A DNA stretch of 64,000 bases from a virus. Taxonomy: Duplodnaviria > Heunggongvirae > Uroviricota > Caudoviricetes. The stretch spans positions 21,296 through 85,295 of the IMG/VR virus record IMGVR_UViG_3300020046_006452. The stretch is one strand, 5' to 3'. How positions within the stretch are numbered: position 1 is the stretch's first letter; every line of letters begins with the position of its first letter. Shown one piece after another: positions 29,779 to 64,000 of the stretch. The position numbers and the translations under genes were made by a program. The notes beneath the pieces are model-generated. The model saw only the letters and a list, made by a program, of their open reading frames with translations. It was not told the origin of the DNA and ran no database searches.

Positions 29779-29779
29779 C

Positions 29780-30100: not shown

Positions 30101-30108
30101 GGTGTCGT

Positions 30109-31585: not shown

Positions 31586-31588
31586 TGC

Positions 31589-33165: not shown

Positions 33166-33399
33166 CATGTAATACGTTGAGTTCCAGTGAGTTCGGGTGT
33201 AGTGCAGGAACTTGGGCACTTTGGCGTTGTCATAGAACGGATCTACCCCCTGGCGCCTCATCTCGCGCGCCAATTGTGGGTGCTCCACCACAAGGGTGTT
33301 CCAAAGGTGCTGTCCCCAGCGGATTCCCTGGCGTTCATAGTGGTCCTTCCAGGTGCAATACGCGGAGGTGAGCCATTGATGTCGTGTTATAGTAGGCAT
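33127..33399 (-). CDS. hypothetical early protein
   Basis: 90 aa. Confidence 0.4.
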   Translation of the reverse strand: MPTITRHQWLTSAYCTWKDHYERQGIRWGQHLWNTLVVEHPQLAREMRRQGVDPFYDNAKVPKFLHYTRTHWNSTYYMQPTGPEGVSTGS

Positions 33400-33404
33400 G
33401 TTGT

Positions 33405-33644
33405 TCAGCAGGTTTCAGGGTGGGGGAACGAACAGAAGTCGCCGTTGGTGCGGGTTACCTGGGCAAGGTACCACTCTCCCCCCTCTTCTTGCTCAACTTT
33501 GGGGACCATAGCCTCGCCTATGTTGCGCAGGCTACGCAGGTCACCATCTTCACACCGCAGCACTCGGGTACGGCCATCGTAGACATTGCGGTACTTGAGG
33601 GTGGAGGGGTACATCGGTTCGGTTTGCAGTTGTGGGCTTATCAT
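33405..33644 (-). CDS. hypothetical protein
   Basis: 79 aa. Confidence 0.35.
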   Translation of the reverse strand: MISPQLQTEPMYPSTLKYRNVYDGRTRVLRCEDGDLRSLRNIGEAMVPKVEQEEGGEWYLAQVTRTNGDFCSFPHPETC

Positions 33645-33647
33645 GTG

Positions 33648-33884
33648 TTACTGGGGGAGTTTGTGTCCTTGATTTGCAGCCGCTTCAAAGGCTGAGTGTA
33701 TGTGCAGGTTGTCAAACAGGTCAGGCTTCTTGCACTGATCGAGGGTCTTAAGCAGGCGTTGGATCAGCTGGGCGTCCTTCTCACGCTCCGTTTCATACAG
33801 GTCGCGCAGTTCGGAAAGGCTCCAAGCGTAGCCCTGCATTTCGGCAAGCCGATCATCGCTGCAAAGGAGGTTAAGGGTGGCCAT
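33648..33884 (-). CDS. hypothetical early protein
   Basis: 78 aa; promoter box 25 nt upstream. Confidence 0.4.
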   Translation of the reverse strand: MATLNLLCSDDRLAEMQGYAWSLSELRDLYETEREKDAQLIQRLLKTLDQCKKPDLFDNLHIHSAFEAAANQGHKLPQ

Positions 33885-34084
33885 GGGATCTCGTTGTGTT
33901 TGTATAAGGCAAAGATACGGTGCTATAGACTAAAGTCAACACCCAAAGTTCGGCATTCGTGGAATCCTAGCTGTAACTTGCTGAGACTGAGGGGGAAAGT
34001 TTTTTCTCTCTGATTGCCAGGCAGTTACGTAGTTGCCCTGAGGATCAGGGGTTTAGCTGTAACTCCCTGAGGCTCAGCACTTAA
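33885..34084 (-). promoter_or_regulatory. early promoter cassette with three CTGAG-N-CTCAG-type palindromes
   Basis: TATCTTTGCC box at about 33897-33915; palindromes about 34002-34012, 34035-34050, 34060-34078. Confidence 0.45.
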
Positions 34085-41947: not shown

Positions 41948-42305
41948 ACTCCTTACCCTTGGAGGTCAGGAACACCATCTCCTTACCTTGCTCATTCTCG
42001 ATAGTGTTAACTAACCCTTTGTCAATCAGACTCTGCAGTGCAGACTCCATTACACATCGTCGTATAGCATCCTCAGCCTCTTCTTGGTTTACGTTTAACT
42101 CTCCAGTAGAGCACCACTTGTCAAATAAGATCTTGCCAAACACCTTTCGGACTGTGGGGCTATCGGTATCGGGGATGTCTACATAGAAGTTGGTATCTTG
42201 AAGTTCTTGCTCCAACTCATCCAATGCTTGTTCTACTTCTTGTGGGTACATGGTGGTGCTATTTGATTTGGTTTTGTTGAGTGAAATGGTCGGGGGTCGG
42301 GTCAC
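41898..42305 (-). CDS. hypothetical protein
   Basis: 135 aa. Confidence 0.4.
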   Translation of the reverse strand: MTRPPTISLNKTKSNSTTMYPQEVEQALDELEQELQDTNFYVDIPDTDSPTVRKVFGKILFDKWCSTGELNVNQEEAEDAIRRCVMESALQSLIDKGLVNTIENEQGKEMVFLTSKGKECVQYDNGGAVPSIEKF

Positions 42306-42381
42306 TTGGTGGCGGCGTTCAACTCATTGCAAACCGCATTGCGCTCCACCGTGTACGGCCCTACTGCGGTTGTCTCGTTGC

Positions 42382-42993
42382 TCATGGCCTGGGTGTGAGT
42401 TGTTCGATGAGCTTCAGTGCTGCGCCGTAGCGGGCCACCTCTTCCCGTGTGTAGCCTTCCATGCGCCCGACCGCTTCGTATTTGTCCAGCCATCCGGCAA
42501 GCGTGTTGACGTGGCAACCGATGGAGATCACATCGTTGTCGGCCTTGGTGATCGTGTGCTTGCCAAGGCATATCGTCCAAGGGGTGCGTTCAACCCGCGC
42601 ATCCCCGGACACCCGCGCATTCCCGGACACCAGCGCATTCCCGGACACCTGCGCATCCCCGTACACCTGCGCATTCCCGTACACCCGCGCATTCCCGGAC
42701 ACCCGCGCATCCCCGTACACCTGCGCATCCCCGTACACCCGCGCATTCCCGGACACCAGCGCATTCCCGGACACCAGCGCATTCCCGGACACCCGCGCAT
42801 CCCCGTACACCTGCGCATTCCCGTACACCTGCGCATTCCCGTACACCCGCGCATTCCCGGACACTAGTCCTTCGATGCGGGCTGTTTTGTCTACCCTGTC
42901 TGGGTGTTGGACCCATCCGCCACCGTTGGCGTGTTGGAAAAGCTCCGTGTCCTTCATCCACGGGTATTTGGCATTGAGTTCTTCGCGTGTCAT
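42382..42993 (-). CDS. hexapeptide-repeat (left-handed beta-helix-like) protein, about 15 x [G-N/D-A-R/Q/L-V-Y/S]
   Basis: repeat block encoded by near-perfect 18-bp tandem DNA repeats at 42590-42860; unique N- and C-terminal segments; ATG at 42993 (MTREEL) gives ATGA overlap with upstream stop. Confidence 0.55.
42590..42860. repeat. about 15 tandem copies of an 18-bp repeat GCGCAT(T/C)CCCG(G/T)ACACC(C/A/T) (plus-strand reading)
   Basis: near-perfect periodicity of 18 bp; encodes the hexapeptide repeats on the minus strand; explains the open frames on both strands. Confidence 0.7.
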
Positions 42994-43298
42994 GTTGTTG
43001 GTGTGATATTGTGCTTGGTGGCTGCGAGGGAGAGGGCGGCATCGCCATCTATGTATGGGCATTCGTCATAAGTCCTTGCGTATGCACAGGCGCCATCCAG
43101 CGCATCCACCAGCGCCTGAACCGTCGCCCGCAGGCTCTCCAGTTCGGCGTGTGTGGTCTTGCGGTCGGCTTCGTACAGGTCGCGAACCATCACTGCCCCC
43201 GCCACATATCCATGTCCTTTGTCACGGATCAATGGACCGTAAAGGAATGCCTCGCCTATTGCGTCATCGCTCACCAGTAGCTCAAGTGTTGCGCTCAT
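42990..43298 (-). CDS. hypothetical protein
   Basis: 102 aa. Confidence 0.4.
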
Positions 43299-43344
43299 AG
43301 GTAGTGATCAAGATATTCGTAAGAGTCGGGAAGTACGTCGTAGC

Positions 43345-43617
43345 TCATTGGTGGTTAGGGTTACGTGTATTGGAGCAAACAGTACCACCCACCACAATCA
43401 AGGATGCCATATGGCCCTCCTCTGCAGTAGCGAACTTACGCACTAAGGTATGCTTATCGATGTGTTCATCCTCCACCCAAAAGATACCCTCTTGCTCCAA
43501 TTGCTCGGTGGTGGTCTCCAGAGCTAGATAAGTGTCCTGGATACTCCCAGCTACTGAAGTGATTGTCTTCTGAGTCCTCTCGTCGTACGAGATCAGGTTG
43601 AGTACTTCGCGGTCCAT
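43345..43617 (-). CDS. hypothetical protein
   Basis: 90 aa; TATCTTTGAC box about 30 nt upstream. Confidence 0.4.
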   Translation of the reverse strand: MDREVLNLISYDERTQKTITSVAGSIQDTYLALETTTEQLEQEGIFWVEDEHIDKHTLVRKFATAEEGHMASLIVVGGTVCSNTRNPNHQ

Positions 43618-43698
43618 TGTGTTGTTATGCTTTTGCTATTGAGTCAAAGATAAGGCATCGGTTGTGTACTTAGCAACACTAAGTTATGAACACTAATG

Positions 43699-43917
43699 CT
43701 AGCGGTACAGTACTACGAAGTCTCCAAACTCTCGATCAAACACCTCCACTAGGTGCTCGTAGTCCCCAGCTTGCATCTCCTCTATGATTGCCTTAGGGTC
43801 CTTGTCCAGTTGCTTAGCAAGCACCTGAGCGTAACCCATTAGAGCAAAAGCGTTGCCATCAGGTCCAGTGAGGTCAATCTCAATTGGTCCTTGGCGGGGT
43901 TGTTTGTTCTTGATCAT
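43699..43917 (-). CDS. hypothetical protein
   Basis: 72 aa. Confidence 0.4.
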   Translation of the reverse strand: MIKNKQPRQGPIEIDLTGPDGNAFALMGYAQVLAKQLDKDPKAIIEEMQAGDYEHLVEVFDREFGDFVVLYR

Positions 43918-44270
43918 TTGCTCAGGGCCTTTGCTTTGTTTACCTTGGGCTTTGGCATCTCCGAGATCAGCTTGTGATAGAACTGATCCTTACTTAGGGG
44001 TTGACCAAACCTACCAACATCATGGTAATGGCCCCACATATATTCAAAGTTGTCTTTGACTATCTCTTCACTGAGAAAGAGACACCCTGCGTACTGATAC
44101 ACCACTCCCAACTCCAGAGCCAATTGGACATCAAGAGCATTGTTCGTGGTTGGCTCAGGCTCAATATCTAAAGCTAGATCCGGTACCTGGTTTGAGACGT
44201 GTCCCTTGGCCAGGATACACTCCCGATTGAGGTTCAGTGCTACCTCAGCGATTTGCTGCTTTGTCATCAT
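43914..44270 (-). CDS. hypothetical protein
   Basis: start moved to MMTKQQ; the first 33 codons of the listed ORF overlie a tRNA-like element. Confidence 0.4.
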   Translation of the reverse strand: MMTKQQIAEVALNLNRECILAKGHVSNQVPDLALDIEPEPTTNNALDVQLALELGVVYQYAGCLFLSEEIVKDNFEYMWGHYHDVGRFGQPLSKDQFYHKLISEMPKPKVNKAKALSK

Positions 44271-44271
44271 G

Positions 44272-44367
44272 TGAACAAGGTAGGACTCGAACCTACACGC
44301 ACCCTGTGCTTCGCTACCCGAGCTTGCTTCCCTCGGACGATGTGGCTCCCAGTTACACCACTTGCTC
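44272..44367 (-). tRNA. tRNA-like element (about 96 nt) with canonical T-arm GTAGGTTCGAGTCCTAC and GAGCAAG/CTTGTTC acceptor; anticodon region does not fold canonically (9-nt loop)
   Basis: manual fold; acceptor and T-arm clear, D-arm GTGT/ACAT; possibly a type-II or degenerate tRNA. Confidence 0.3.
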
Positions 44368-44416
44368 ATAACGTTATTGACAAATATACAACTTTAACTG
44401 ACTACCTTGCAACCAC

Positions 44417-45142
44417 CTATAACAAGCTGAAGTTTTTACATTCGTCAAGAGAGCGAAGAAAGATTATGTTTGAGTAAGTTGACTTCAAGATCTCGATCTT
44501 ATGTAATTGATTGGCATATGCTGCTGGGTTCTTTGGATCTAGATACAAGTTGTGATCCTCCAAGTAAAAGTCAGGAAAGTAATTATGCTCCAGACCGCTC
44601 TTGTCAACCCACTTGAGTGGAGATGGTCTGCTCCACTTTATGCCCATTTCATCTAATCGGATAGCTAATGCATGCTCCCACGTACTGTCCAGCAACACTC
44701 CTTTGTACTCGATAATGTTTCTGCGAAGTCTTCTATGATCTGATCTCAGGGCCGCGTCGCGCATCCTTTCTATTGACTCAGACTTATGCTTCCTTCCCAG
44801 CTTGTAGCTGTAGTCCACATGAGCGTATTTGCCGTCCGCATGGGCCTTTTTTATAGCGCAACTTCGCTTTTCTATCACTTCCGGCTTCTTATAGGCTGCT
44901 CTACGGTGTGAAAGGAACTCCTCATACTCAACTCGTTTGGGATTTGATTTACACCACCTTGAGTGGTTCATTATCTCAGAGGAAGTAGACACACTCAAAC
45001 TCTTCCACGTAAGCTGACAGTGCTTACAACAGGTTGACTTCCCTCTAGTCAAAGGAGGTTGGCCTGTACAGCAGGCGAAATGCCTTTCGAGGTTGTTATT
45101 AGTGATACTAGCCTTACATCTATCGCACGTGGACTGTCTCAT
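44417..45142 (-). CDS. Zn-finger protein, possible homing endonuclease
   Basis: 241 aa; N-terminal Cys clusters; C-terminal TWEHALAIRLDEMGIKW...YFPDFYLEDHNLYLDPK nuclease-like; sits inside the tRNA region. Confidence 0.35.
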   Translation of the reverse strand: MRQSTCDRCKASITNNNLERHFACCTGQPPLTRGKSTCCKHCQLTWKSLSVSTSSEIMNHSRWCKSNPKRVEYEEFLSHRRAAYKKPEVIEKRSCAIKKAHADGKYAHVDYSYKLGRKHKSESIERMRDAALRSDHRRLRRNIIEYKGVLLDSTWEHALAIRLDEMGIKWSRPSPLKWVDKSGLEHNYFPDFYLEDHNLYLDPKNPAAYANQLHKIEILKSTYSNIIFLRSLDECKNFSLL

Positions 45143-45195
45143 TACCTTTTCTCATAAGTATGGTGAAGGGGATAAAACAGCGATGTTCGGTTTAG

Positions 45196-45268
45196 TAGTC
45201 CTGACAAGATTCGAACTTGTGACCTAGGTGTTAGAAGCACCTTGCTCTGTCCACTGAGCTACAGGACC
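45196..45268 (-). tRNA. tRNA-Arg(TCT): tRNA-Arg (anticodon TCT)
   Basis: GGTCCTG-TA-GCTCAGTGGACAGAGC-A-AGGTG/CTTCTAA/CACCT-AGGTC-ACAAGTTCGAATCTTGT-CAGGACT-A. Confidence 0.7.
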
Positions 45269-49698: not shown

Positions 49699-50193
49699 TT
49701 ACTGAAAGCTGGTTTGGTAGTCACTCCATACTTGCTCTACATCAGGATCGAATAGCTTACCGAACACTGAGGGCTCATATGGCTTGTTAGTCAACCGCAT
49801 GTTAGCCTCTTCAGGAGTCCTGTCAGCCTTCTTCAAGTTGCAGCTGTAGCAGCAAGTGATTAGGTTGGTCCACGAGTTATCTCCACCTCGTGACTTAGGT
49901 AGAATGTGGTCAATAGTCAAGTGCCTAGTTGATCCGCAGTAGGTACAAGTGTGATGATCACGGTCGTAGATCCTCTTGCGGTTGACCTTCAACTTCTTCA
50001 TCATGAAGCGAACGTACTTCAGCAATCTAATGATCACTGGACGTACGTACTGCACTACCCCAGCAAGGATTGGACTGTCTTCAACAGACTTCAGTATCTC
50101 AGCCTTTCCTTTGTAAACCAACTTGAATCCGTGACGGACCGAGGTGACGTTCAATGGAGAGTAGTCTGAGTTTAGCACCAGTACTCTTTCCAT
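49699..50193 (-). CDS. HNH endonuclease
   Basis: HHTCTYCGSTRHLTIDHILPKSRGGDNSWTNLITCCYSCNLKK. Confidence 0.7.
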   Translation of the reverse strand: MERVLVLNSDYSPLNVTSVRHGFKLVYKGKAEILKSVEDSPILAGVVQYVRPVIIRLLKYVRFMMKKLKVNRKRIYDRDHHTCTYCGSTRHLTIDHILPKSRGGDNSWTNLITCCYSCNLKKADRTPEEANMRLTNKPYEPSVFGKLFDPDVEQVWSDYQTSFQ

Positions 50194-55209: not shown

Positions 55210-55272
55210 ATTGATGCCTTATGTGTTGAGCCAAAGATACACCCTACCTAGTGTACTTAGCAACTTTACTAT

Positions 55273-55348
55273 TGGAGCAAATGATCGGACTCGAACCGAC
55301 AGCCTTCACGTTGGCAACGTAGTGCTCTACCAATTGAGCTACATTTGC
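55273..55348 (-). tRNA. tRNA-Gly(GCC): tRNA-Gly (anticodon GCC), CCA encoded
   Basis: GCAAATG-TA-GCTCAATTGGTAGAGC-A-CTACG/TTGCCAA/CGTGA-AGGCT-GTCGGTTCGAGTCCGAT-CATTTGC-T-CCA. Confidence 0.65.
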
Positions 55349-55415
55349 ATTTACCTGTCTTTCCAGGTTGTCAACCAGTGCACCTGTGGCCGTCGCCTAG
55401 CGTGTTGGGTTTGTC

Positions 55416-55472
55416 GTGGAGCCGTTAGGAGTTGAACCTAAAACCGGAAGCTCTCCGTCGAGCTACGGCCCC
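55416..55472 (-). pseudogene. truncated tRNA-like remnant (about 57 nt): acceptor + D-arm + T-arm, anticodon arm missing (tRNA-Ala-like halves)
   Basis: GGGGCCG-TA-GCTCGACGGAGAGC-TTCCGGTTT-TAGGTTCAACTCCTAA-CGGCTCC-A; lies 4 nt from the tRNA-Val 3' end. Confidence 0.35.
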
Positions 55473-55476
55473 ATTG

Positions 55477-55555
55477 TGGTAGTTCCTCTCAGATTTGAAC
55501 TGAGGACCTTCGCTTTGTAGGAGCGCTGCTCTTAACCAGACTGAGCTAAGGAACT
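55477..55555 (-). tRNA. tRNA-Val(TAC): tRNA-Val (anticodon TAC), CCA encoded; C at position 33
   Basis: AGTTCCT-TA-GCTCAGTCTGGTTAAGAGC-A-GCGCT/CCTACAA/AGCGA-AGGTC-CTCAGTTCAAATCTGAG-AGGAACT-A-CCA. Confidence 0.55.
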
Positions 55556-56039
55556 GTGTGTAGAAGGCCTAGTCTCAAGTTCCCTCCTATATGACTAGAG
55601 GGTCCATCACGGCCGTGAATGCTGGCAAGCTCTAAGGAACTATTAGCTCACCGGGGACCTCCTCTAAGAGGACACTTCTACAGTAACAAAAAAGATGTAG
55701 GGAGTCTAATGTAAAACCCTCCTCGATTAGAAGCGAACCATGATCGTCGGATTACAAGACCATGAAGTTGACTGAGTCGCTAAACCCCATCCCTACAATA
55801 ACAATACAGCAGCAGCGAGTGTGAAGGACTGGACGGCTAAACCCAGTTGCGTTTTGAGGACGCCTCAGCCTGACTACATGGGGGATCAATCCCACTTATC
55901 TACTAGCTTGCCCTTTTCGAAAATCAAAGTGTGTACACCGCTATAAGTCGTTTGTGGTTGCTTTGCTGGCATCCAACGACTCACTTACCACACCGCTCTT
56001 CACCTCTAGCTGCAATAATCAAAGAACACCTTTCTCCAG

Positions 56040-56113
56040 TACTCCGGGCAGGGATTGAACCTGCGACCTTGTGCTCATAAGGCACCTGCTACTAACCGCT
56101 GAGCTACCGGAGC
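56040..56113 (-). tRNA. tRNA-Ile(TAT): tRNA-Ile (anticodon TAT; alternatively a Met/Ile2 derivative)
   Basis: GCTCCGG-TA-GCTCAGCGGTTAGTAGC-A-GGTGC/CTTATGA/GCACA-AGGTC-GCAGGTTCAATCCCTGC-CCGGAGT-T. Confidence 0.5.
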
Positions 56114-56208
56114 GTTATTTTGTGAGAGGAAGGGGATTGATACCCTGCAGTGTGACTCACCCACACTGTCACTTGCGCCAAGTAGGTCCTTTCCTACTCC
56201 TCTCTTTT

Positions 56209-56281
56209 GTACCCCCTGCAGGATTCGAACCTGCAGAATTTTGCTCCTAAGGCAAACGCGTATACCTTTCCGCCAAGGGGG
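56209..56281 (-). tRNA. class-I (short variable arm) tRNA with anticodon TAG (formally Leu-CUA)
   Basis: GCCCCCT-TG-GCGGAAAGGTATACGC-G-TTTGC/CTTAGGA/GCAAA-ATTCT-GCAGGTTCGAATCCTGC-AGGGGGT-A; perfect anticodon stem; G1-U72. Confidence 0.55.
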
Positions 56282-56289
56282 CATTACTC

Positions 56290-56428
56290 TCACTTCTCCT
56301 TGAGATCTATACCATACAACTTGACGATCAGATCATTGAACTCTTGCTGCACTATTGGACTCACAAAGCTATCACGCACTGCAACTAACAGCTGCTTAAC
56401 TTGTTGCTTGGTCCAGGTTGGTTGTTCC
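56290..56428 (-). CDS. small protein (about 46 aa)
   Basis: start set at MEQPTWTK because TATATTTG promoter box lies about 21 nt upstream; the longer listed ORF runs into the tRNA. Confidence 0.3.
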
Positions 56429-56464
56429 ATCTCGCTGCTGTTGGATGAATCAAATATACGCCAC

Positions 56465-56734
56465 TTACTCTGTACTCTGCAACTTTTTTCTAGCTGGAAG
56501 AAGGTGGTACTCATCGTACCATGCCGTATGGGGATCGAAGCTCTCAACCTCAAAGCACTCGTGCGCTGGATAGTGTACTCCATTAGTTGACACTATTGCT
56601 TTCTCCTTGTACTGTATCCCCCGTTCAACATCCACCTTTGTGTAGTCGTAGGTTCTCTCTACGATTAGTACTGCTGGTTGATTAGTTGTTGGTGAATACC
56701 GTATCATCACCATTCCCTTCTTGTAGTAAGCCAT
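56465..56734 (-). CDS. hypothetical protein
   Basis: 89 aa. Confidence 0.4.
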   Translation of the reverse strand: MAYYKKGMVMIRYSPTTNQPAVLIVERTYDYTKVDVERGIQYKEKAIVSTNGVHYPAHECFEVESFDPHTAWYDEYHLLPARKKLQSTE

Positions 56735-56746
56735 AACTTGTGAATT

Positions 56747-57157
56747 TTAGAACTCCATGTAAACCATTCGCCTAGAGATCAAGTCCAGCATTCCAGGAGT
56801 AGCATATGCGATCGTATTGAAATCGGCATCTACTAGTCGTACTGGCTTGATGTATAGGTTGAACACTATACAGCTTTCAAATGAAGTAAGCACCAACTTT
56901 TCATTGTGGACCACCTTATTGTTGACCTCAAAGCTGAAGATATATGTACCAGGATCCAATGAGATCATGGTCTTGTTGGTGAATGCCTTGGACTTGACCT
57001 TAAGGGTTAAGTCTGGCATCTGCTTCCAGATGAACACCTCACCTTGTGCTACCTCGGTAGGATGCTCTTTGATCACATTAACGAACACGGTGCTGAGTTG
57101 CGCTTTGCATGATAAGCTAAGCAATGCAACTAGTAACAGTAGTATCAGCTTTCTCAT
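56747..57157 (-). CDS. lipoprotein
   Basis: MRKLILLLLVALLSLSCKAQ signal peptide with lipobox. Confidence 0.4.
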   Translation of the reverse strand: MRKLILLLLVALLSLSCKAQLSTVFVNVIKEHPTEVAQGEVFIWKQMPDLTLKVKSKAFTNKTMISLDPGTYIFSFEVNNKVVHNEKLVLTSFESCIVFNLYIKPVRLVDADFNTIAYATPGMLDLISRRMVYMEF

Positions 57158-57175
57158 AGTGCTGATAAGTAGAAG

Positions 57176-57985
57176 TCAGCGTTGTTTGTTCGCGTATCTT
57201 TGATCCCATAACTTAATGCGATCCAGCAATTGATCTAGGGTGATTGCACTTACCGTGTTCTTGCTGTTGTTATCAGAGTGCTTCATCAGTTGGCAGTTTG
57301 CTGGATGACGAATGATCTCAGGGTCAATGCTCTTTGAAAATCCCTCTCTCACACTGTACAGGTGATCTCTACTAACACCACCTAAGTTGTTCCCTTTGTT
57401 GGTTGGACTATACCAACCAAGTTGGGTGACCAATGTCATGTCAAAGGCATCAGGAAACTTGGAGATATCAAAGTCAAACTCACAGGAGGGTCTATAGAAT
57501 TTGTAGTAGGTGATTCTACACACACTGCATAGTAATCTCTTTCCCTCAAGCTTCTTCCACTCCCCACAAGACTTACACAGTCTCTTTCCATCAACGCACT
57601 TCGTTTTGCGTAATGCAGATCGGCCATCAATCCATAGTGAGCTGTTGGGCCCTTTTCTACTATCAGGAACAGTGCGACCTATCAGTTTGGATCGAATCTT
57701 CTCCTTTGTCTGATCGCTGTGAACTCGTCCTATATTACTATGGGTAGTGGCACAGCTAGCTGAGCAGAACTTTCTAGGGTGTTTACGCCTAATGGAAACC
57801 TTAAAAGGTTCCTTACAGGTTGGGCATTCGCGTTGTGCGTAGTACTCAGTTTTTATTTTAAGCTTACACGTTCGGTTGTTTACCGACAATTTAGTAACTC
57901 CCAACAAAAGGGCAATCTCATTGCGTGACTTCCCTTGTTTGACGAGGTCTGCTAGCTTAGCATCCCCACTATCTGTCCATCTCAT
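57176..57985 (-). CDS. HTH + zinc-finger protein, probable HNH-type homing endonuclease
   Basis: 269 aa; N-terminal sigma-70 region-4-like HTH (NEIALLLGVTKLSV), several CxxC pairs, C-terminal DHLYSV...NCQLMKHSDNNSKN. Confidence 0.4.
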   Translation of the reverse strand: MRWTDSGDAKLADLVKQGKSRNEIALLLGVTKLSVNNRTCKLKIKTEYYAQRECPTCKEPFKVSIRRKHPRKFCSASCATTHSNIGRVHSDQTKEKIRSKLIGRTVPDSRKGPNSSLWIDGRSALRKTKCVDGKRLCKSCGEWKKLEGKRLLCSVCRITYYKFYRPSCEFDFDISKFPDAFDMTLVTQLGWYSPTNKGNNLGGVSRDHLYSVREGFSKSIDPEIIRHPANCQLMKHSDNNSKNTVSAITLDQLLDRIKLWDQRYANKQR

Positions 57986-58049
57986 GCTAATACATAGGAC
58001 TATAAGAGACCAAAGTGGTTTCTGAACCTATAGATGTCATTGAGAGTGG

Positions 58050-58124
58050 AGCGAGAATCCCACTCACCTATCCGGGGTTGCAATCCGGCGCCTAAGTACT
58101 CGGCCACCCACTCTCAATGATACC
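58050..58124 (-). tRNA. tRNA-like (candidate anticodon GCA, Cys) with non-canonical D-loop (no GG) and T-loop (GGATTCT)
   Basis: perfect 7-bp acceptor GAGAGTG/CACTCTC; anticodon arm CCGGA/TTGCAAC/CCCGG with A-C mismatch at 31:39; coordinates approximate. Confidence 0.3.
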
Positions 58125-58140
58125 TAAACCACTCGGACAA

Positions 58141-58215
58141 CTGACTATATGGCACACCCGCCCTGATTCGAACAGGGGACTCTAGTTTTGGAGACTAGCG
58201 CTTTTCCAGCTAAAC
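58141..58215 (-). tRNA. tRNA-Trp(CCA): tRNA-Trp (anticodon CCA), CCA encoded
   Basis: GCATCTG-TA-GTTTAGCTGGAAAAGC-G-CTAGT/CTCCAAA/ACTAG-AGTC-CCCTGTTCGAATCAGGG-CGGGTGT-G-CCA (three G-U pairs in acceptor). Confidence 0.55.
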
Positions 58216-58237
58216 TACAGATGCGTATACTACTAAT

Positions 58238-58364
58238 TCAAGATAGGGGGGCAAGGTTGGATTTGAACCAACGCGCCTACATTACAATCGACTGCAGTGT
58301 AAACATTGCCCTAGCTGTGTCGATCAGCCTCAGGCCCAGTTAAGCCTCTCCTGCACTTGCCCCC
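58238..58364 (-). ncRNA. about 120-nt tRNA-like RNA: 9-bp terminal stem GGGGGCAAG/CTTGCCCCC, canonical T-arm GTTGGTTCAAATCCAAC, internal arm with anticodon-like loop ATCGACA (CGA, Ser)
   Basis: manual fold; too long for a standard type-II tRNA; contains a CCTGAGGCTGATC palindrome-like segment. Confidence 0.3.
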
Positions 58365-58379
58365 TTCTTCTCTCGAATA

Positions 58380-58673
58380 TCAAAACAAGAACTCAACTCC
58401 GGAGTTACCCCATTGTGAGCTCCACTCTTTCTTTCGCAGCGAACGCTTGTACATCCACTGCTTTTTGTTCTTAGAGACAAGCTTCCAGGAAGGGTAGTTG
58501 ATGTAGGTCCTACCATTGTATTGGTTGACGATACCATACCACTTCTTGCCCTTTGCATTGTCTCGTTCGTGCCAGCCACAGTAAGAACACCTAGCGTGTA
58601 TCTCCTTATGCAGTTTGTTGAACACTGATCGGTTAGTGGTCTGGTCATAGTACGTCTTCTTCTTATTGTACAT
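58380..58673 (-). CDS. hypothetical Cys/His-containing protein
   Basis: 97 aa; HARCSYCGWHE. Confidence 0.3.
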   Translation of the reverse strand: MYNKKKTYYDQTTNRSVFNKLHKEIHARCSYCGWHERDNAKGKKWYGIVNQYNGRTYINYPSWKLVSKNKKQWMYKRSLRKKEWSSQWGNSGVEFLF

Positions 58674-58752
58674 TGTTGGTTTGATTTAGGGAATTTACCT
58701 AAATCGTGCCATGCTGTTTTTGATCATCGTGTGTTGTGTTGTTAGTGTATAG

Positions 58753-58827
58753 TAGCCAAGGTGAGAGTCGAACTCACAGAACTCCTGAGTTTGAATCAGG
58801 CGACTTTACCAGTTTGCCCACTTGGCC
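58753..58827 (-). tRNA. class-I tRNA with anticodon CAA (formally Leu-UUG)
   Basis: GGCCAAG-TG-GGCAAACTGGTAAAGTC-G-CCTGA/TTCAAAC/TCAGG-AGTTCT-GTGAGTTCGACTCTCAC-CTTGGCT-A. Confidence 0.5.
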
Positions 58828-58833
58828 TTATCG

Positions 58834-58904
58834 TACTCCCACTGAGAATCGAACTCAGATCTTCACTTTAAAAGAGTGTAGCTCTACCACTGAGCTATAG
58901 GAGT
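58834..58904 (-). tRNA. tRNA-Lys(TTT): tRNA-Lys (anticodon TTT)
   Basis: ACTCCTA-TA-GCTCAGTGGTAGAGC-T-ACACT/CTTTTAA/AGTGA-AGAT-CTGAGTTCGATTCTCAG-TGGGAGT-A. Confidence 0.6.
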
Positions 58905-59166
58905 AAAAGTGACACCCTATTTTACTCAGCTACAGGTGTCGTGGCTGTCCTCCTCGAAGCAATGGTCACGTTGTACGCCCACACCGGCAAGGAGTTAGAG
59001 ATAAGACCTTAAGGCTCGTTCTAGTCGCCTCTTCCCAACATCAGGCTGTGTCTGGCCTACCACTGAGGATTGCAGCCCTCTTCCGACATGGTTATCGGCC
59101 CCTGCAGTAGTCACTCTGCTTCCTCGCTTGGGGGCAAGCTATCTGGGAACAACCCCAGAGCGTTTG

Positions 59167-59358
59167 TTAGTCCTCATCAACATACTCGATATCATCCTTA
59201 AGAATACCATCGGCAATTAAACAAAGCAGATCTAGACCTTCAAGTTGGCCATCATCACTTTGCATGATTGATTCACCAGGTCCATGCTCACTGTAGTACT
59301 TTGTGAGTGCTTCAATTGCTTGAGCCTTCTTGCGCTCAGTCCATTTGATGTTGTACAT
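59167..59358 (-). CDS. hypothetical acidic protein
   Basis: 63 aa. Confidence 0.3.
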   Translation of the reverse strand: MYNIKWTERKKAQAIEALTKYYSEHGPGESIMQSDDGQLEGLDLLCLIADGILKDDIEYVDED

Positions 59359-59624
59359 TACAGTTTGATTATTGTGATAGTTCCATCATCCCAGGCTCTG
59401 AAGCAAGGACCATCTCCCAGCTGCACTTCATACCAGACATACCCACCTTCAGTTTCAATCACCAACTTGACTATGTTCACGTCTGTTGCATTCAGTGCTC
59501 TGAGCTGACTTTCTATTGCCTCACGTGCTTTGGAGTGTTGTATGTACTCCAGTGTGATTCTATTACTCCATGCCATACTGTATTGTGTTGTTTGTGGTAC
59601 CTCCTGAAAGACTCGAACTTTCAA
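59358..59624 (-). CDS. hypothetical protein
   Basis: 88 aa. Confidence 0.35.
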   Translation of the reverse strand: MKVRVFQEVPQTTQYSMAWSNRITLEYIQHSKAREAIESQLRALNATDVNIVKLVIETEGGYVWYEVQLGDGPCFRAWDDGTITIIKL

Positions 59625-59671
59625 CCCCTACGTTCGAAGCGTAGTACTCTATCCAATTGAGCTAAGGAGGC
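59595..59671 (-). tRNA. tRNA-Arg(TCG): tRNA-Arg (anticodon TCG), CCA encoded
   Basis: GCCTCCT-TA-GCTCAATTGGATAGAGT-A-CTACG/CTTCGAA/CGTAG-GGGT-TGAAAGTTCGAGTCTTTCA-GGAGGT-A-CCA; overlaps the 3' end of the 59358..59624 ORF, whose stop I did not check. Confidence 0.65.
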
Positions 59672-59677
59672 ATACTA

Positions 59678-59923
59678 TTACATCCGCTCTATCTCTTCCT
59701 TGGTCTTCTTCTGCACCACCATTAGATCGTATATCTTAGCGTGGTAGTCCTTAAGCAGTTGCATGCTGTGTATGGACCAATCATCTGGTGGTATTGTGTA
59801 GTCAGGAAAGTAAGTGAACCTGATCATACCATTTTGGTTTGGTCCAGATCCTAGGATCCTACCATCATCATCCATATGGCACTCAAAGTTACCATCACCT
59901 ATGTGTTTTATTGTGCACTCCAT
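59678..59923 (-). CDS. hypothetical protein
   Basis: 81 aa. Confidence 0.35.
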   Translation of the reverse strand: MECTIKHIGDGNFECHMDDDGRILGSGPNQNGMIRFTYFPDYTIPPDDWSIHSMQLLKDYHAKIYDLMVVQKKTKEEIERM

Positions 59924-60232
59924 TGCAAAGGCTTAATCGACAGCACTACCTTGGTGGGTATTGCTACTACATATCCAACTACTTGTTCAGTACTATCCTT
60001 CTGGTTGGTGAAGTAACTATCAGTTAGGACTAGCTGATTAGAGTCCTGTTTGAGTACAAAGCCAATTTGCTGTACTGTGTCGGTGTTCCACTCTAGAGCT
60101 TCTTGCAAAGGTCGCCAAGCACCATCACTCGCTACAATATCAACCCAGGTCACTAGCACCGGCTGAGGATTGAACTGTGCTTGTGCTCCCTTTAGTACGA
60201 GGACAAGCAGGGCTGTAGCGATTTGCTTCATC
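59908..60232 (-). CDS. secreted protein
   Basis: start set at MKQIATALLVLVLKGAQA (signal peptide) with TATATTTC box just upstream. Confidence 0.35.
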
Positions 60233-60262
60233 GCTGAAATATACGCCCTTCCTAGTGTACTA

Positions 60263-60436
60263 TCCAAATAACATTGGCCGTTGGGGCACAATATCATAGA
60301 AGTACCATTCAGCAAACTGCTTATTGACCACCTCGGTGATCTGTTCCTTTGTTAGATCGCGATGAACATATATGGTCTGATTCTCTGAGTAGTCTTCTGT
60401 GAGGTAGACTACGACCTCCTTCTCGTTGTTTGGCAT
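60263..60436 (-). CDS. small protein (about 57 aa; below the ORF-track cutoff)
   Basis: MPNNEKEVVVYLTEDYSENQTIYVHRDLTKEQITEVVNKQFAEWYFYDIVPQRPMLFG. Confidence 0.3.
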
Positions 60437-60451
60437 GTCCTATTTGTTTAG

Positions 60452-60525
60452 TACTCCCTAAAAGATTCGAACTTTTAGCCTCAACATTCGTAGTGTTGTG
60501 CTCTATCCAATTGAGCTAAGGGAGT
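60452..60525 (-). tRNA. tRNA-Arg(ACG): tRNA-Arg (anticodon ACG)
   Basis: ACTCCCT-TA-GCTCAATTGGATAGAGC-A-CAACA/CTACGAA/TGTTG-AGGC-TAAAAGTTCGAATCTTTTA-GGGAGT-A. Confidence 0.7.
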
Positions 60526-60741
60526 GTGTTTAATGTGTTCGTGGGGCGACTTCATGGCTTCAGAAGTAGAGTCAGTCCGGCAGAATGCCGCGTTTTTGAC
60601 CTTGCTTCGCTATCCTGGCATCGTGGAGTTAGAGTCCACTACTCCCGCGCATTGCACCATGTTTGCATCCCTTGGACCATTGCCGGATTGCTCCGTCGGA
60701 AGGGTAGCCGCACCCACGAACACATCAATTTTAACCTCAAG

Positions 60742-60815
60742 GGTATGTGATGGGGGTCGAACCCACGATAACTAGCTCCACAAACTAGCGCGTTAACCAC
60801 TTCGCCACACATACC
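60742..60815 (-). tRNA. tRNA-His(GTG): tRNA-His (anticodon GTG) with encoded G-1
   Basis: G-GTATGTG-TG-GCGAAGTGGTTAACGC-G-CTAGT/TTGTGGA/GCTAG-TTATC-GTGGGTTCGACCCCCAT-CACATAC-C; G-1:C73 is the His hallmark. Confidence 0.65.
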
Positions 60816-60836
60816 ATGTACTCTTCTTTTGTGATC

Positions 60837-60908
60837 TCGGCAGGAGTCGAACCTGCATCTACTGTTTAGGAAACGGTGGTTCTCTCCATTGAACTACGAG
60901 ACCAATTG
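60837..60908 (-). tRNA. tRNA-Arg(CCT): tRNA, probable Arg (anticodon CCT); anticodon stem has a C-A mismatch
   Basis: GGTCTCG-TA-GTTCAATGGAGAGAAC-C-ACCGT/TTCCTAA/ACAGT-AGAT-GCAGGTTCGACTCCTGC-CGAGATC-A. Confidence 0.45.
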
Positions 60909-60913
60909 TTGCG

Positions 60914-60985
60914 CAGCCAGGAGTTGAACCTGGATCTCTGGGTTATGAGCCGAGCGTGCTACCATTTACACCACCGCACAATGTA
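60914..60985 (-). tRNA. tRNA-Met(CAT): tRNA-Met (anticodon CAT)
   Basis: TGTGCGG-TG-GTGTAAATGGTAGCAC-G-CTCGG/CTCATAA/CCCAG-AGAT-CCAGGTTCAACTCCTGG-CTGCGCA-A. Confidence 0.55.
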
Positions 60986-61086
60986 CTTTCTATTATTTGA
61001 GTAATTAACCCCACCACACTAGTTGCTTGCACACGACCTCTATTTCAACAGCGGTCCACTAGCTTTACGTGATCATCCTGTCTACC

Positions 61087-61410
61087 TCAGGTGAGGTCAA
61101 TTACCTTAACTGCCTTCTTCTTTACCCAGTCTGGACCCAATTGCTCAGTACCGAACCTACCATCCATCTCTCGAAGGACATACAAGGTAGTGTTGAGCTG
61201 CTTGGCAATTGACTTCAAGTGCCCCATGTCATTAGTCAAGTCTAGGTCTCCGTACCATACTTTGCCTTGGCCTTGTGTGAAGATGTTGGCGTTGAAGTGC
61301 ACCTCGTTGTTGGGGTGTGCTTGTGTGTAAAAGGTCTTACTACCTCCAATCATACGACCCATGATAAGGCCTTGTGTGTCGAATGCTGCTGAGATTTTCG
61401 TTAGTGTCAT
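61087..61410 (-). CDS. hypothetical protein
   Basis: 107 aa; TATATTTGAC box abuts ATG. Confidence 0.4.
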   Translation of the reverse strand: MTLTKISAAFDTQGLIMGRMIGGSKTFYTQAHPNNEVHFNANIFTQGQGKVWYGDLDLTNDMGHLKSIAKQLNTTLYVLREMDGRFGTEQLGPDWVKKKAVKVIDLT

Positions 61411-61463
61411 CGTGTGTCAAATATAACCCCTACTTTGGGGACTTTGCAACTTTACTTGTTAAG

Positions 61464-61542
61464 TACCCCCGACAGGACTCGAACCTGTACTCCTAAGAAC
61501 CTGGTCTTAAATCAGGCGCGGCTACCGTTTCGCCACGGGGGC
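61464..61542 (-). tRNA. tRNA-Leu(TAA): tRNA-Leu (anticodon TAA), class II with about 12-nt variable arm
   Basis: GCCCCCG-TG-GCGAAACGGTAGCCGC-G-CCTGA/TTTAAGA/CCAGG-TTCTTAGGAGTA-CAGGTTCGAGTCCTG-TCGGGGGT-A. Confidence 0.55.
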
Positions 61543-61555
61543 ATTTGTATCTAAG

Positions 61556-61628
61556 TCCTCTCGGCTGGAATCGAACCAACGGCCGCCACAGTATCGGTGT
61601 GGAACTCTAACCACTGAGTTACGAGAGG
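61556..61628 (-). tRNA. tRNA-Ile(GAT): tRNA-Ile (anticodon GAT); C at position 33
   Basis: CCTCTCG-TA-ACTCAGTGGTTAGAGT-T-CCACA/CCGATAC/TGTGG-CGGCC-GTTGGTTCGATTCCAGC-CGAGAGG-A; its 5' 10 nt overlap the stop of the upstream HNH gene. Confidence 0.5.
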
Positions 61629-62242
61629 TGTTTTTGCTTTTCTTGGTATACTGCTTCCTCCTCTTCTCCGTGGCAGTTAGCACAGAGTAGTATGCACTTA
61701 TCAACCTCGGCTTTCATCTTTTCGTAGCTGCATGTACCATATGATAGATCAAAGTCCTTTGTGTTTCGATCGATGTGATGGAACTGTAGGGATCTTATGC
61801 ACCGATCGTATCCGCACGACTGACACTTTCCACCCTTATAATCAACGAGGGTCTTCTTCAACCACCTTCGTCTCTTTTGTGTGTACTCACCTCCTTTCTT
61901 CTTTCTTGTTGGTTCATCCATCTTAGATCGTACACGCTGATTTATGTAGCCAGCTAGTGTTGATCGACACCAACCAAATCTCTTGCATACATCACGTAGT
62001 GGGACACCAGTGTCGTAAAAAAGCTGCATCTCGGTTATTTGCTCCTTTGTTGGAGCACCTTTGTACAGAGGTGATTGTATGCCAGCCTTCTTGCAGTGAT
62101 AGGAGATCAAAGACATCGTACATCCCACCTCTCTCTTTATTGCAGGAAAGCTTAGTCCCTGCTGTCTTAACTTTATTATAGTGGCCTTGAACTGATTACC
62201 CATATCACACTCTATTTGAGTATAAATAGGGACAGGGTTCAA
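61619..62242 (-). CDS. HNH homing endonuclease with N-terminal HTH
   Basis: SLQFHHIDRNTKDFDLSYGTCSYEKMKAEVDKCILLCANCH; stop codon TAA is tRNA positions 8-10 of the adjacent tRNA; CTATTTATA motif upstream. Confidence 0.65.
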   Translation of the reverse strand: MNPVPIYTQIECDMGNQFKATIIKLRQQGLSFPAIKREVGCTMSLISYHCKKAGIQSPLYKGAPTKEQITEMQLFYDTGVPLRDVCKRFGWCRSTLAGYINQRVRSKMDEPTRKKKGGEYTQKRRRWLKKTLVDYKGGKCQSCGYDRCIRSLQFHHIDRNTKDFDLSYGTCSYEKMKAEVDKCILLCANCHGEEEEAVYQEKQKHLS

Positions 62243-62404
62243 GAACCACCCAAAGTGTGGTCATTTTCCCCGTTGGTTCCCTTGATCAGAGGGAGGAGTG
62301 GGTAGAAACAACCAAAACATCATCTCCAGTTGGTGGGCGAGCCGGCATAGCAAGGCTACCACCTCCCTAACGGAGGGGGCTCTTACTAAAGCTTCGCCCA
62401 TGTG

Positions 62405-62481
62405 CGGTCCGTATGGGATTTGAACCCATGCAATCTCCTCAGTGACAGTGAGGCGTCCACTCCAGGCTGGACCGACGGACC
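62405..62481 (-). tRNA. tRNA-Asp(GTC): tRNA-Asp (anticodon GTC)
   Basis: GGTCCGT-CG-GTCCAGCCTGGAGTGGAC-G-CCTCA/CTGTCAC/TGAGG-AGATTGC-ATGGGTTCAAATCCCAT-ACGGACC-G. Confidence 0.65.
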
Positions 62482-62852
62482 AAATATAGTATCATTATCG
62501 GTTGAGATTACACCGTTTCTAACAGACCCTTCGTACCTACATTCCACTGAGGTGCGACCCTCTAGGTTTAGTACTTATCCACTGACTCTTTCGGGTCAGT
62601 CGCCTGCCATCGCTGCCTTTGATTATCCTGAGGGGCATTGCTCAGTATCACAGTAACTTTACTCGACCTTTTGTCTCGTCCTCTGCTTTGCGGGCATTCA
62701 ACTACGCTTCAAACGCTTGTCTAAGGATCTGCCTACTCGATCAAATCTCTCGGCCTTGCGAGCTTTGAGACTCCTGTTCATCCGTAGATGCAGGAATTAA
62801 GCGACTTTTCGTCACTGTGTGTCCCCGGTCTTTGCTTTTAATCATGTTTTAT

Positions 62853-62920
62853 AGCGATGGAATCGAACCACCAACCTATTCCTTAGAAGGGAATCGCTCT
62901 ACCAATTGAGCTAACTTTGT
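62853..62920 (-). tRNA. tRNA-like with D-arm GCTCAATTGGTAGAGC, anticodon arm ATTCC/CTTCTAA/GGAAT (TCT) and T-arm GGTGGTTCGATTCCATC but no pairing acceptor stem found
   Basis: manual fold; acceptor 5' ACAAAGT has no complement 3' of the T-arm; degenerate tRNA or mis-resolved ends. Confidence 0.3.
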
Positions 62921-63806
62921 TGATTGTCTATGTTGAAATGTGCCAGGGACTAGCTGCTCTACTTCCTTTTAGGAAGCAAAATACAACACACTTCTATGCG
63001 TTTCGGCTTGCGGCCTACTGTGCTGATATTGACCAACCCTTTCGGATCAGCTTGTTCAGGTCTACCGAGGTAAGTTTAACCCTACCCTTTATACCCTCAT
63101 TCTGAAGCTTAGCGTTTGACTTGCGGTCTCACACAGAACTCCTGCACCTTATTCATCTCCAGACTGCGTAGATTGGTTGCGTGGTGGTAGGGATGTCCCC
63201 ACCTCAATTAGTACTCACCGATCGGCTCTGTACGTATCCTTACCAAAGGACCATCACTATCTACTTCTGTCTTTCACTCCACTTGGTGGTGAAGTCTAGC
63301 ATTGGTTGCTAGGGAACAGTGCTTGCTTGAATTGACCATATTGCTATGGTGGGTCGCCTTAGACTAGCTTCCCCTTTACAGCCTTGCGACTGCTTATCTT
63401 TCTTCGTGGCTCCTCCTTCCCCGCAGCACTACCCGAAGGTAGGTCCGCAGTACTCAGACTTGCCACAACCGCCTCAAGCAGCGGTAATCTCTTTAAGATC
63501 AATGTGTGTATGGTTTATTACCCGGACCTTGGCCTACTTGCTAGAGGACTTCACCCCTACCCACCATTCCTGCTATCTGAGAGTTTTGCTTTCGCATATC
63601 AGACTCGCATCCAAGGCTCTGTACTACTAACATTACTGCTAGTAGAGCTTTACCGTTTAGGTACTCCTAAATCTAGTGGAGGAGACCACTTACACACACT
63701 ATGTCTTGCTTTTCAAAGAACGTTGATTGCTTTTGCAATCGCTTGACTTTCACAATATACGCCAACCATTTGGTCTTTGCAACTGTTAAGCCAAACTTTC
63801 TTTTTG

Positions 63807-63879
63807 CTGCTCCACTAGGAATCGAACCTAGATAAGTTGGTTAACAGCCAACCGTAATAAGCCTTTATACGATGGAGCA
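63807..63879 (-). tRNA. tRNA-Asn(GTT): tRNA-Asn (anticodon GTT)
   Basis: TGCTCCA-TC-GTATAAAGGCTTATTAC-G-GTTGG/CTGTTAA/CCAAC-TTAT-CTAGGTTCGATTCCTAG-TGGAGCA-G. Confidence 0.65.
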
Positions 63880-64000
63880 ATGATATCATCAGGCCCTCCC
63901 CAGCCTCCGCGGATGGTTCAGTATCTGATCGGCTTTAGTCTCTAGGCTCTAGAACCATAGAAAGATAAGAGGCCCATCTGAATATCCCACACCCACACTC

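Follow-up and report, generated by a model that had tools for sequence, protein, structure and literature searches.

A GOLLD RNA and polymorphic endonuclease genes within the tRNA gene array of an uncultured tailed phage

Results

tRNA genes of the array

We analyzed a 64,000-nucleotide stretch of the viral record IMGVR_UViG_3300020046_006452 (Caudoviricetes), here called the window, and focused on the island of tRNA genes near its end. The window carries baseplate and tape-measure genes, which gave a phage context. In the window, ARAGORN called 19 tRNA genes. All were on the minus strand, and 17 of them were located within 55273-63879 (Table 1). The Rfam tRNA covariance model called the same 17 genes with scores of 37-68 bits (threshold 29), and one extra element at 62848-62920. 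A first-pass annotation, made from the sequence alone, had described an island of about 17 canonical tRNAs. This was consistent with the 17 genes on which both programs agreed, and every anticodon that it named was recovered by the automated check. However, its list missed tRNA-Leu (TAG) and tRNA-Leu (CAA), did not contain Cys-GCA, and counted as an island Arg-TCT what is a pseudo-tRNA. CCA ends were encoded in four tRNAs (Gly, Val, Trp and Arg-TCG), as read from the sequence and the end offsets of ARAGORN and Rfam. tRNA-His carried an encoded G-1, a G at 60815 opposite C73. No tmRNA was detected in the window by ARAGORN or by the Rfam tmRNA model.

The island was truncated by the window edge, and the remainder was visible in a relative, L131. 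This 132.5-kb JGI contig was found through a homologue search with a 107-aa open reading frame (ORF) of the island, and it was 99.9% identical to window 63804-51087. Further upstream, L131 contained eight more tRNAs (Glu, Ser-GCT, Lys-CTT, Ala, Pro, Gln, Tyr and Phe). The complete array thus comprised 25 tRNAs and the outlying tRNA-Arg (TCT), covering 19 amino acids. A second relative, L134 (37.9 kb), was 75-88% identical and had a syntenic array of 26 tRNAs, and its tRNA-Arg (TCT) was likewise outside and downstream of the array. No megablast match to the island was found among INPHARED phages, and sequenced phages included no close relative of the window. IMG/VR queries with proteins of 136 aa and 122 aa from the flanks of the island gave no matches. 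The best explanation is that a large (~132 kb) uncultured tailed phage is the source of this tRNA gene array, of which the window contains the downstream two-thirds.

The first-pass annotation had also mentioned a tRNA with non-canonical D- and T-loops. This was probably tRNA-Cys (GCA), which gave the lowest score, 37 bits, and had the T-loop UGGGAUU. Since tRNA-Cys was conserved in L134 and L139 with compensatory changes in the acceptor, it is probably functional despite the odd T-loop. The tRNAs with the Leu anticodons TAG and CAA were 74-76 nt in length and had no long variable arm, as were their counterparts in L134 and L010. Because bacterial tRNA-Leu is normally class II, the aminoacylation identity of these class-I-like tRNAs is uncertain.

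Table 1. Features of the tRNA array and its surroundings in window coordinates.
Feature	Position	Strand	Basis or remark
Outlying tRNA-Arg (TCT)	45195..45268	-	ARAGORN and Rfam tRNA model
Phage promoter motif, downstream island edge	55234..55263	-	motif scan
tRNA-Gly (GCC), CCA encoded	55273..55348	-	ARAGORN and Rfam tRNA model, sequence reading
57-nt mini-tRNA	55420..55476	-	folds at minimum free energy as a cloverleaf without one arm, z=-2.95; tRNA-Ala alignment
tRNA-Val (TAC), CCA encoded	55477..55555	-	ARAGORN and Rfam tRNA model, sequence reading
Element C, ~185-nt conserved structured non-coding RNA (candidate)	55820..56003	-	between tRNA-Ile (TAT) and tRNA-Val; comparison with L134, L138
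tRNA-Ile (TAT)	56039..56113	-	ARAGORN and Rfam tRNA model
~80-nt four-way-junction spacer RNA, 7-bp closing stem	56118..56196	-	z=-3.23
tRNA-Leu (TAG), class-I length	56209..56282	-	ARAGORN and Rfam tRNA model
Phage promoter motif	56453..56482	-	motif scan
269-aa ORF, probable free-standing homing endonuclease	57176..57985	-	phrog_23051 (uncharacterised) 9.5e-39; weak homing-endonuclease PHROG 6e-4
tRNA-Cys (GCA), non-canonical T-loop	58042..58113	-	ARAGORN and Rfam tRNA model, 37 bits (lowest)
tRNA-Trp (CCA), CCA encoded	58150..58224	-	ARAGORN and Rfam tRNA model, sequence reading
~120-nt tRNA-like RNA	58245..58365	-	folding; conserved in L139
tRNA-Leu (CAA), class-I length	58752..58827	-	ARAGORN and Rfam tRNA model
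tRNA-Lys (TTT)	58833..58904	-	ARAGORN and Rfam tRNA model
Element B, ~250-nt conserved structured non-coding RNA (candidate)	58905..59150	-	upstream of tRNA-Lys; comparison with L134
tRNA-Arg (TCG), CCA encoded	59595..59671	-	ARAGORN and Rfam tRNA model, sequence reading
tRNA-Arg (ACG)	60451..60525	-	ARAGORN and Rfam tRNA model
~200-nt spacer RNA, ~22-bp terminal stem	60530..60728	-	z=-3.61
tRNA-His (GTG), encoded G-1 included	60741..60815	-	ARAGORN and Rfam tRNA model, sequence reading
tRNA-Arg (CCT)	60831..60903	-	ARAGORN and Rfam tRNA model
tRNA-Met (CAT)	60908..60980	-	ARAGORN and Rfam tRNA model
Phage promoter motif	61420..61449	-	motif scan
tRNA-Leu (TAA)	61463..61542	-	ARAGORN and Rfam tRNA model
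tRNA-Ile (GAT)	61555..61628	-	ARAGORN and Rfam tRNA model; allele unlike that of HNH-less relatives
HNH homing-endonuclease gene, 194 aa, N-terminal HTH	61619..62203	-	phrog_2255 7.7e-26; other HNH PHROGs
70-nt stem structure ending ACCA	62331..62399	-	z=-3.22
tRNA-Asp (GTC)	62404..62481	-	ARAGORN and Rfam tRNA model
GOLLD RNA, entire	62499..63747	-	RF02032 match, relatives, inferred transcription start ~63747
GOLLD conserved 3' domain	62499..62996	-	Rfam RF02032, model positions 1-416 of 416
Pseudo-tRNA nested in GOLLD linker	62848..62920	-	D, anticodon and T arms, no acceptor pairing; Rfam 50 bits, not called by ARAGORN
GOLLD 5' domain	62997..63496	-	88% conserved in L134, compensatory changes
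Lineage-specific closed ~210-nt domain at GOLLD 5' end	63500..63710	-	z=-3.17
Phage promoter motif TTGCAA-N17-TATATT, upstream of GOLLD	63754..63782	-	conserved in L132, L134
tRNA-Asn (GTT)	63806..63879	-	ARAGORN and Rfam tRNA model; other Asn-GTT allele in L131

A GOLLD RNA between tRNA-Asn and tRNA-Asp

A run of 1.3 kb without ORFs extended from tRNA-Asn to tRNA-Asp, and it was occupied by a ~1,250-nt GOLLD RNA. The full RF02032 model matched with 130.6 bits and E=5e-35 (9.1e-36 in a second scan). The relatives L131, L132 and L134 gave 130.2, 142.8 and 139.2 bits, all below 150. The conserved core corresponded to 62499-63496. When the window was compared with L132 and L134, covariation was observed in several hairpins (for example, CATC/GATG to CACC/GGTG) and also in the pseudoknot, where GAC became ACA as TA became GT. 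In addition, the 5' domain was homologous to that of the unrelated IMG/VR GOLLD loci L021 and L102 (nhmmer E=4.7e-8, matching offsets of -906..-605 versus -887..-561). By homology and covariation, 62499-63747 is a GOLLD RNA, a sub-threshold member of the family in an unsampled phage lineage. The additional domain of ~210 nt at the 5' end was closed by a stem of 63700-63685 with 63515-63502; it was present in L132 and absent in L134.

The position of the RNA relative to the tRNAs was also conserved. The 3' end of GOLLD was 17 nt before tRNA-Asp, which began 22 nt past the 3' motif, and in L134 GOLLD likewise lay between the Asn and Asp genes. In IMG/VR, at least 119 GOLLD-like loci were returned by a pattern scan. 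About 50 of these had flanking tRNAs on the same strand, many with a tRNA starting 12-22 nt after the 3' motif. The distant relatives L001-L011 carry tRNA arrays, and no GOLLD was found in the four that were scanned (L003, L007, L008 and L010). No Rfam hit at E<=5 was obtained for ROOL or any other large RNA family.

The extra call of the Rfam tRNA model was located in the linker that is unpaired in the RF02032 model. The two sides of its acceptor, 5' ACAAAGU and 3' GCUAUAA, failed to pair. A tRNA without a pairing acceptor had been noticed in the first-pass annotation. It exists, and it is the same element that had been counted as the fourth Arg (TCT) of the island, inside GOLLD. Its anticodon was TCT in the window and CTT in L132 and L134, which indicated that it is not a decoding tRNA. 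tRNA-like elements occurred at the same linker offset in 4 of 112 other GOLLD loci.

The identity between L132 and the window was mosaic. It was ~99.5% over 64000-63330 and ~95.5% over all of 64000-62254, which includes Asn, GOLLD and Asp, and it was 78-85% downstream. This pattern suggests that recombination took place recently around the GOLLD cassette.

Promoter motif

An extended motif, TTGCnn-N16-18-TAT[AC]TT, usually followed by TG, was found 16 times on the minus strand of the window and never on the plus strand, and 0.28 copies were expected in shuffled sequences. A generic sigma-70 scan showed no enrichment over shuffles, and only the phage-specific extended motif was enriched. The copies of this sigma-70-like motif split the array into several predicted transcription units, and across the window the motif probably marks early or middle transcription units of the phage.

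Endonuclease genes

The first-pass annotation had described homing endonucleases interleaved with the tRNAs. This held for the HNH gene at 61619-62203, although Pfam detected only its N-terminal HTH. In the case of the 269-aa ORF, the evidence from sequence searches was a weak homing-endonuclease match. The 3' end of the HNH gene overlapped tRNA-Ile. The gene was absent from L132 and L133, which were 90-95% identical up to 62254 and resumed at 61548, and the tRNA-Ile allele adjoining this empty site differed from that of the window. The 269-aa ORF was wholly missing in L139, where the flanks were 87% identical, and in L134. In L131, the tRNA-Asn of the window was exactly replaced by an unrelated Asn-GTT allele together with a 192-aa HNH gene. 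Because these ORFs come and go among near-identical genomes and the neighboring tRNA allele was swapped twice, the presence and absence of the endonuclease genes and the swapped Asn and Ile alleles fit homing with co-conversion.

A further HNH gene was located outside the island at 49699-50193 on the minus strand (Pfam HNH 3e-13). It was conserved in L134 and was not polymorphic.

Aberrant tRNA-like elements

A 57-nt tRNA lacking the anticodon arm and a tRNA-like RNA of about 120 nt had both been proposed from the sequence, and both were confirmed. The 57-nt mini-tRNA was supported by folding. It retained the D and T arms, A73 and an acceptor with G3:U70, and it had no anticodon loop and no paired anticodon stem. 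In the alignment with tRNA-Ala (TGC), a gap of 16 columns covered the 3' half of the anticodon arm and the variable region. Its slot between Val and Gly was the slot of Ala-TGC in L134, and a full tRNA-Ala was present elsewhere in the array of the same phage, as seen in L131. These results indicated that the mini-tRNA is clearly a deletion derivative of tRNA-Ala, judged from the alignment, the slot and the full tRNA-Ala elsewhere. The earlier wording of "remnants" therefore fits at least this element. The mini-tRNA was known from the window and the near-identical L131 only.

In the ~120-nt tRNA-like RNA, the acceptor was 7-9 bp, the T arm was canonical, the "anticodon" arm was elongated and a long extra arm was present. 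This RNA was 87% identical in L139, and all substitutions but one kept or improved the pairing. In L134 (8437-8558) and L136 (2655-2778), the slot was occupied by a different element of ~105 nt with a shared core and no Rfam hit, in which a stem covaried (CUCAC/GUGAG versus CUUGC/GCAAG). The 70-nt stem structure next to tRNA-Asp was not called by the Rfam tRNA model. It was an insertion relative to L134 and was present in L132 and L133.

Two further tRNA-like elements were observed. In L133, a 108-nt tRNA-like element with a large insertion (2052-2159, Rfam tRNA 39.4 bits) was located between tRNA-His and tRNA-Arg (ACG), where the window holds only the ~200-nt self-closing spacer. Outside the island of the window, a 97-nt tRNA-like element at 44272-44367 on the minus strand was called "Pro-ggg" by ARAGORN and gave 30.9 bits with the Rfam tRNA model under permissive filters only. 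Its T arm was canonical, and it carried G3:U70, A73 and an "anticodon" loop of 9 nt. A copy of the phage promoter motif (44383-44412) immediately preceded it, and an ORF immediately followed. Between the element and tRNA-Arg (TCT) was an endonuclease-like ORF (44417-45142, phrog_15137, 2.4e-9).

Candidate structured RNAs between the tRNAs

Two spacers, elements B and C, are candidates for new structured RNAs on the basis of comparisons of two or three sequences each, with structures predicted from the same alignments. The core of element B was more than 90% conserved with L134, with five compensatory pairs and none broken, and with indels that break the reading frame. Element C was common to the window, L134 and L138, and consisted of invariant blocks and a variable hairpin. 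In its alignment, 95.5% of the cells were paired, and 10 pairs were changed on both sides, compared to 5.3±1.5 in shuffles and 0-5 in slid controls. Folding of single sequences was unremarkable (55556-56038, z=-0.19; 58905-59166, z=+0.62), which meant that the structural signal of both elements came from the comparisons only.

No Rfam family matched B or C. Pattern scans gave no homologues of element C in the viral collection, or of element B in the viral and genome collections, and a covariance model of element C (R1), run over 1.17 Mb of loci, detected no additional members. When ten spacer elements were compared by nhmmer with 130 loci, matches were found in close relatives only. A pattern scan of metagenomes gave four contigs. 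They shared the pattern alone, had no tRNAs and appeared at about the chance number by a rough estimate, and they were rejected.

Spacers longer than ~80 nt tended to have self-closed folds with long terminal stems in the window, L133, L134 and L138, despite differences in sequence. In the case of the ~200-nt spacer, the stem sequence was conserved in L133, and L134 had a different self-closing spacer at this site. The sequence of the ~80-nt spacer was not conserved in L134 and L138, which held other self-closing spacers there. We considered whether such spacers were MITE-like repeats. This was rejected, as none recurred elsewhere in the window.

Other observations were made in the window and in L010, a 193-kb IMG/VR phage contig. 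L010 carried an abiF RNA (RF03085, 16961-16997, 53 bits, above the gathering score) within an array of 30 tRNAs. The G+C content of the window was 0.52-0.56 in 28000-34000 and 42000-44000, compared to about 0.46-0.47 elsewhere.

Discussion

The results are best explained by a phage tRNA array with a near-complete decoding set, in which a GOLLD RNA begins one transcription unit, endonuclease genes move by homing and the aberrant tRNA-like elements arise from turnover of the array, and which serves phage translation late in infection. We consider this explanation as a whole to be likely. Because about 26 tRNAs for 19 amino acids were encoded, the array is a near-complete decoding set and not a patch for a few codons, and general translational self-sufficiency fits best. 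Late in infection, its most likely main role would be to sustain phage translation with tRNAs made by the phage. Added benefits may be codon matching and resistance to tRNA-cleaving defenses.

Transcription of each unit would give a long precursor that contains tRNAs together with small ORFs and non-coding RNAs. Cuts at the tRNAs, made by RNase P of the host and by 3'-end processing, would then release the pieces. The GOLLD transcript of ~1,250 nt, with its own promoter, would begin one of the units. By homology with solved GOLLD RNAs, it would be expected to assemble into a multimeric RNA cage, and the acceptor-less module in the linker would not be excised and would stay part of GOLLD. The aberrant tRNAs may be products of array turnover or derived tRNA-like RNAs, namely the armless Ala, the 120-nt RNA of class-II shape and the odd but functional Cys.

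GOLLD is among the largest bacterial or phage non-coding RNAs, and its function is still unknown. A tRNA cluster that contains GOLLD, a pseudo-tRNA nested in it and an HNH gene has been described (PMC6582537), so the arrangement observed here is already published and known in kind. It resembles the "32-tRNA cluster" of Mycobacterium aubagnense/abscessus in the pseudo-tRNA in the linker, the flanking tRNAs and the HNH gene in the cluster (PMC6582537). Like known GOLLD RNAs, it had a 3' domain matching the full model, a variable 5' domain, a total length above 800 nt and a phage context (PMC6582537, PMC12286853). In contrast, the scores of this phage group were 130-143 bits against 150, an extra closed 5' domain of ~210 nt was present, and a promoter motif was located immediately upstream. 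GOLLD has been shown to form a 14-mer cage, with a linker that sometimes holds tRNAs (PMC12286853). The interleaving of same-strand tRNAs, small ORFs and endonuclease genes is similar to the SegB region of T4 (PMC2330249, PMC13096335) and to T5-type tRNA regions (PMC10264068). In those clusters as well, the endonuclease genes are polymorphic among relatives and influence the inheritance of neighboring tRNAs. For T4 SegB, homing with co-conversion of the neighboring tRNA was shown (PMC2330249). However, the enzymes in our array were HNH-type or uncharacterized and not GIY-YIG, and there was no close INPHARED relative.

Several points weigh against this explanation. The GOLLD score was lower than the curated gathering score of 150 and was not reported by a default Rfam scan. 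tRNA-Thr was not found in the stretches examined. Protein searches gave no basis for inferring the host, as their sole link was a distant one to a 462-kb phage that is itself uncultured. The 269-aa ORF gave no recognized nuclease domain in Pfam or PDB searches. Homing was deduced from polymorphism and not from cleavage, and we infer the transcription starts, the precursor model and the punctuation by RNase P.

A live rival is that the array acts against host defense. Its tRNAs would replace host tRNAs cut by anticodon nucleases or other tRNA-targeting immunity, such as PrrC/RloC-type systems, retrons, PARIS, Septu and Schlafen, and the endonucleases would spread or amplify the tRNA cassettes. 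It has been reported that phage tRNAs rescue infection from tRNA-cleaving defenses (PMC10264068, PMC11555353, PMC11464382), and that a homing endonuclease in a T-even tRNA cluster amplifies anti-defense tRNA loci (PMC13096335). The tRNA alleles swapped jointly with HNH genes in our array would be consistent with this. L134 encoded an RNA ligase (PF09414, 14464-15504) 3.7 kb downstream of its array; no counterpart was present at that position in the window, and the ligase may bear on tRNA repair or anti-defense. However, among 20 neighboring ORFs of the window, a Pfam scan revealed no tRNA-repair gene, such as an RNA ligase, a kinase/phosphatase or a CCA-adding enzyme. Moreover, a set for 19 amino acids is broader than the replacement of a few targeted tRNAs needs. 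Anti-defense is compatible with sustained phage translation and does not exclude it, and we regard it as possible but rather unlikely.

It is also doubtful, though conceivable, that the aberrant tRNA-like elements are functional and not debris. In this case, the mini-tRNA would be charged by alanyl-tRNA synthetase (AlaRS), and the 120-nt RNA, elements B and C and the spacers would act as processing signals, sponges or regulators. AlaRS charges acceptor minihelices carrying G3:U70. The mini-tRNA kept G3:U70, A73 and intact D and T arms, and in its acceptor, T arm and missing anticodon arm it resembles the tRNA-like domain of tmRNA and the AlaRS minihelices. Unlike tmRNA, it had no mRNA-like domain and is a deletion derivative of an ordinary tRNA-Ala gene. 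The tRNA cluster of phage T4 encodes the small stable RNAs "species 1 and 2" (rnaC/rnaD), which measure ~120-140 nt and end in a tRNA-like acceptor, and the 120-nt element resembles them in these respects. The structure-preserving changes of this element relative to L139, the covariation in elements B and C and the closed spacer folds kept in four relatives despite sequence turnover also argue for function. However, the restriction of the mini-tRNA to the window and L131 gave it no evolutionary depth, and the full tRNA-Ala in the array is what would be expected for a redundant, decaying duplicate. The comparisons covered only two or three sequences per element, and no homologues were found outside the phage group.

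Codon-specific compensation, especially for Arg, would mean that the tRNAs serve codons poorly decoded by the host. This had been suggested from an "Arg-heavy" composition of the island, and we consider it improbable. AGA/AGG, ATA and CTA are rare in many bacteria. In the phage, AGA/AGG made up 42% of Arg codons, ATA 22% of Ile codons and CTA 26% of Leu codons, and the cognate tRNAs were encoded, which is compatible with codon matching. However, the Arg excess was an artifact, since one of the island Arg tRNAs is the GOLLD pseudo-tRNA. The six Arg codons were used evenly by the phage, the four real Arg tRNAs (TCT, CCT, ACG and TCG) read all six as a full decoding set, and the identical four anticodons were found in the related arrays of L134 and L010, so the argument fails. 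The array of about 26 tRNAs was also truncated by the window, and the codon figures came from the phage side.

The suggestion that degenerate copies serve as decoys that soak up host tRNA-cleaving nucleases is very improbable and had no support beyond their presence in the island, since the mini-tRNA is without the anticodon arm, the part recognized by anticodon nucleases, and cannot act in this way, the acceptor-less element is embedded in GOLLD with an anticodon that is not conserved, and the 70-nt element was not matched by the tRNA model. Taken together, the island, its mobile endonucleases and the tRNA-derived oddities of the first-pass interpretation were retained, and the Arg-heavy composition and the decoys were not.

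A near-complete phage tRNA array with a GOLLD unit may have several implications. The GOLLD copies of a whole phage lineage score below the Rfam gathering score and are missed in routine annotation. Where aberrant tRNAs adjoin a long stretch without ORFs in a phage tRNA island, they could be used as a cue to search for sub-threshold GOLLD or ROOL. The near-identical genomes that differ by cassettes of endonuclease and tRNA would be a natural record of homing reshaping a tRNA array. The lineage also offers natural GOLLD variants, with and without the ~210-nt 5' domain, with a drifting anticodon in the linker and with a dedicated promoter, and these may be handles for the function of the cage and its tie to the tRNA array. 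In addition to GOLLD, the array may hold at least two undescribed RNA families (B and C), a conserved 120-nt tRNA-like RNA and an anticodon-less tRNA-Ala with the AlaRS identity pair. This would suggest that phage tRNA arrays are nurseries of non-coding RNAs in which the tRNAs serve as processing handles, a tentative proposal that we place not far short of an even chance. If it is true, GOLLD would be only the largest example of the stable non-coding RNAs nurtured in phage tRNA arrays.

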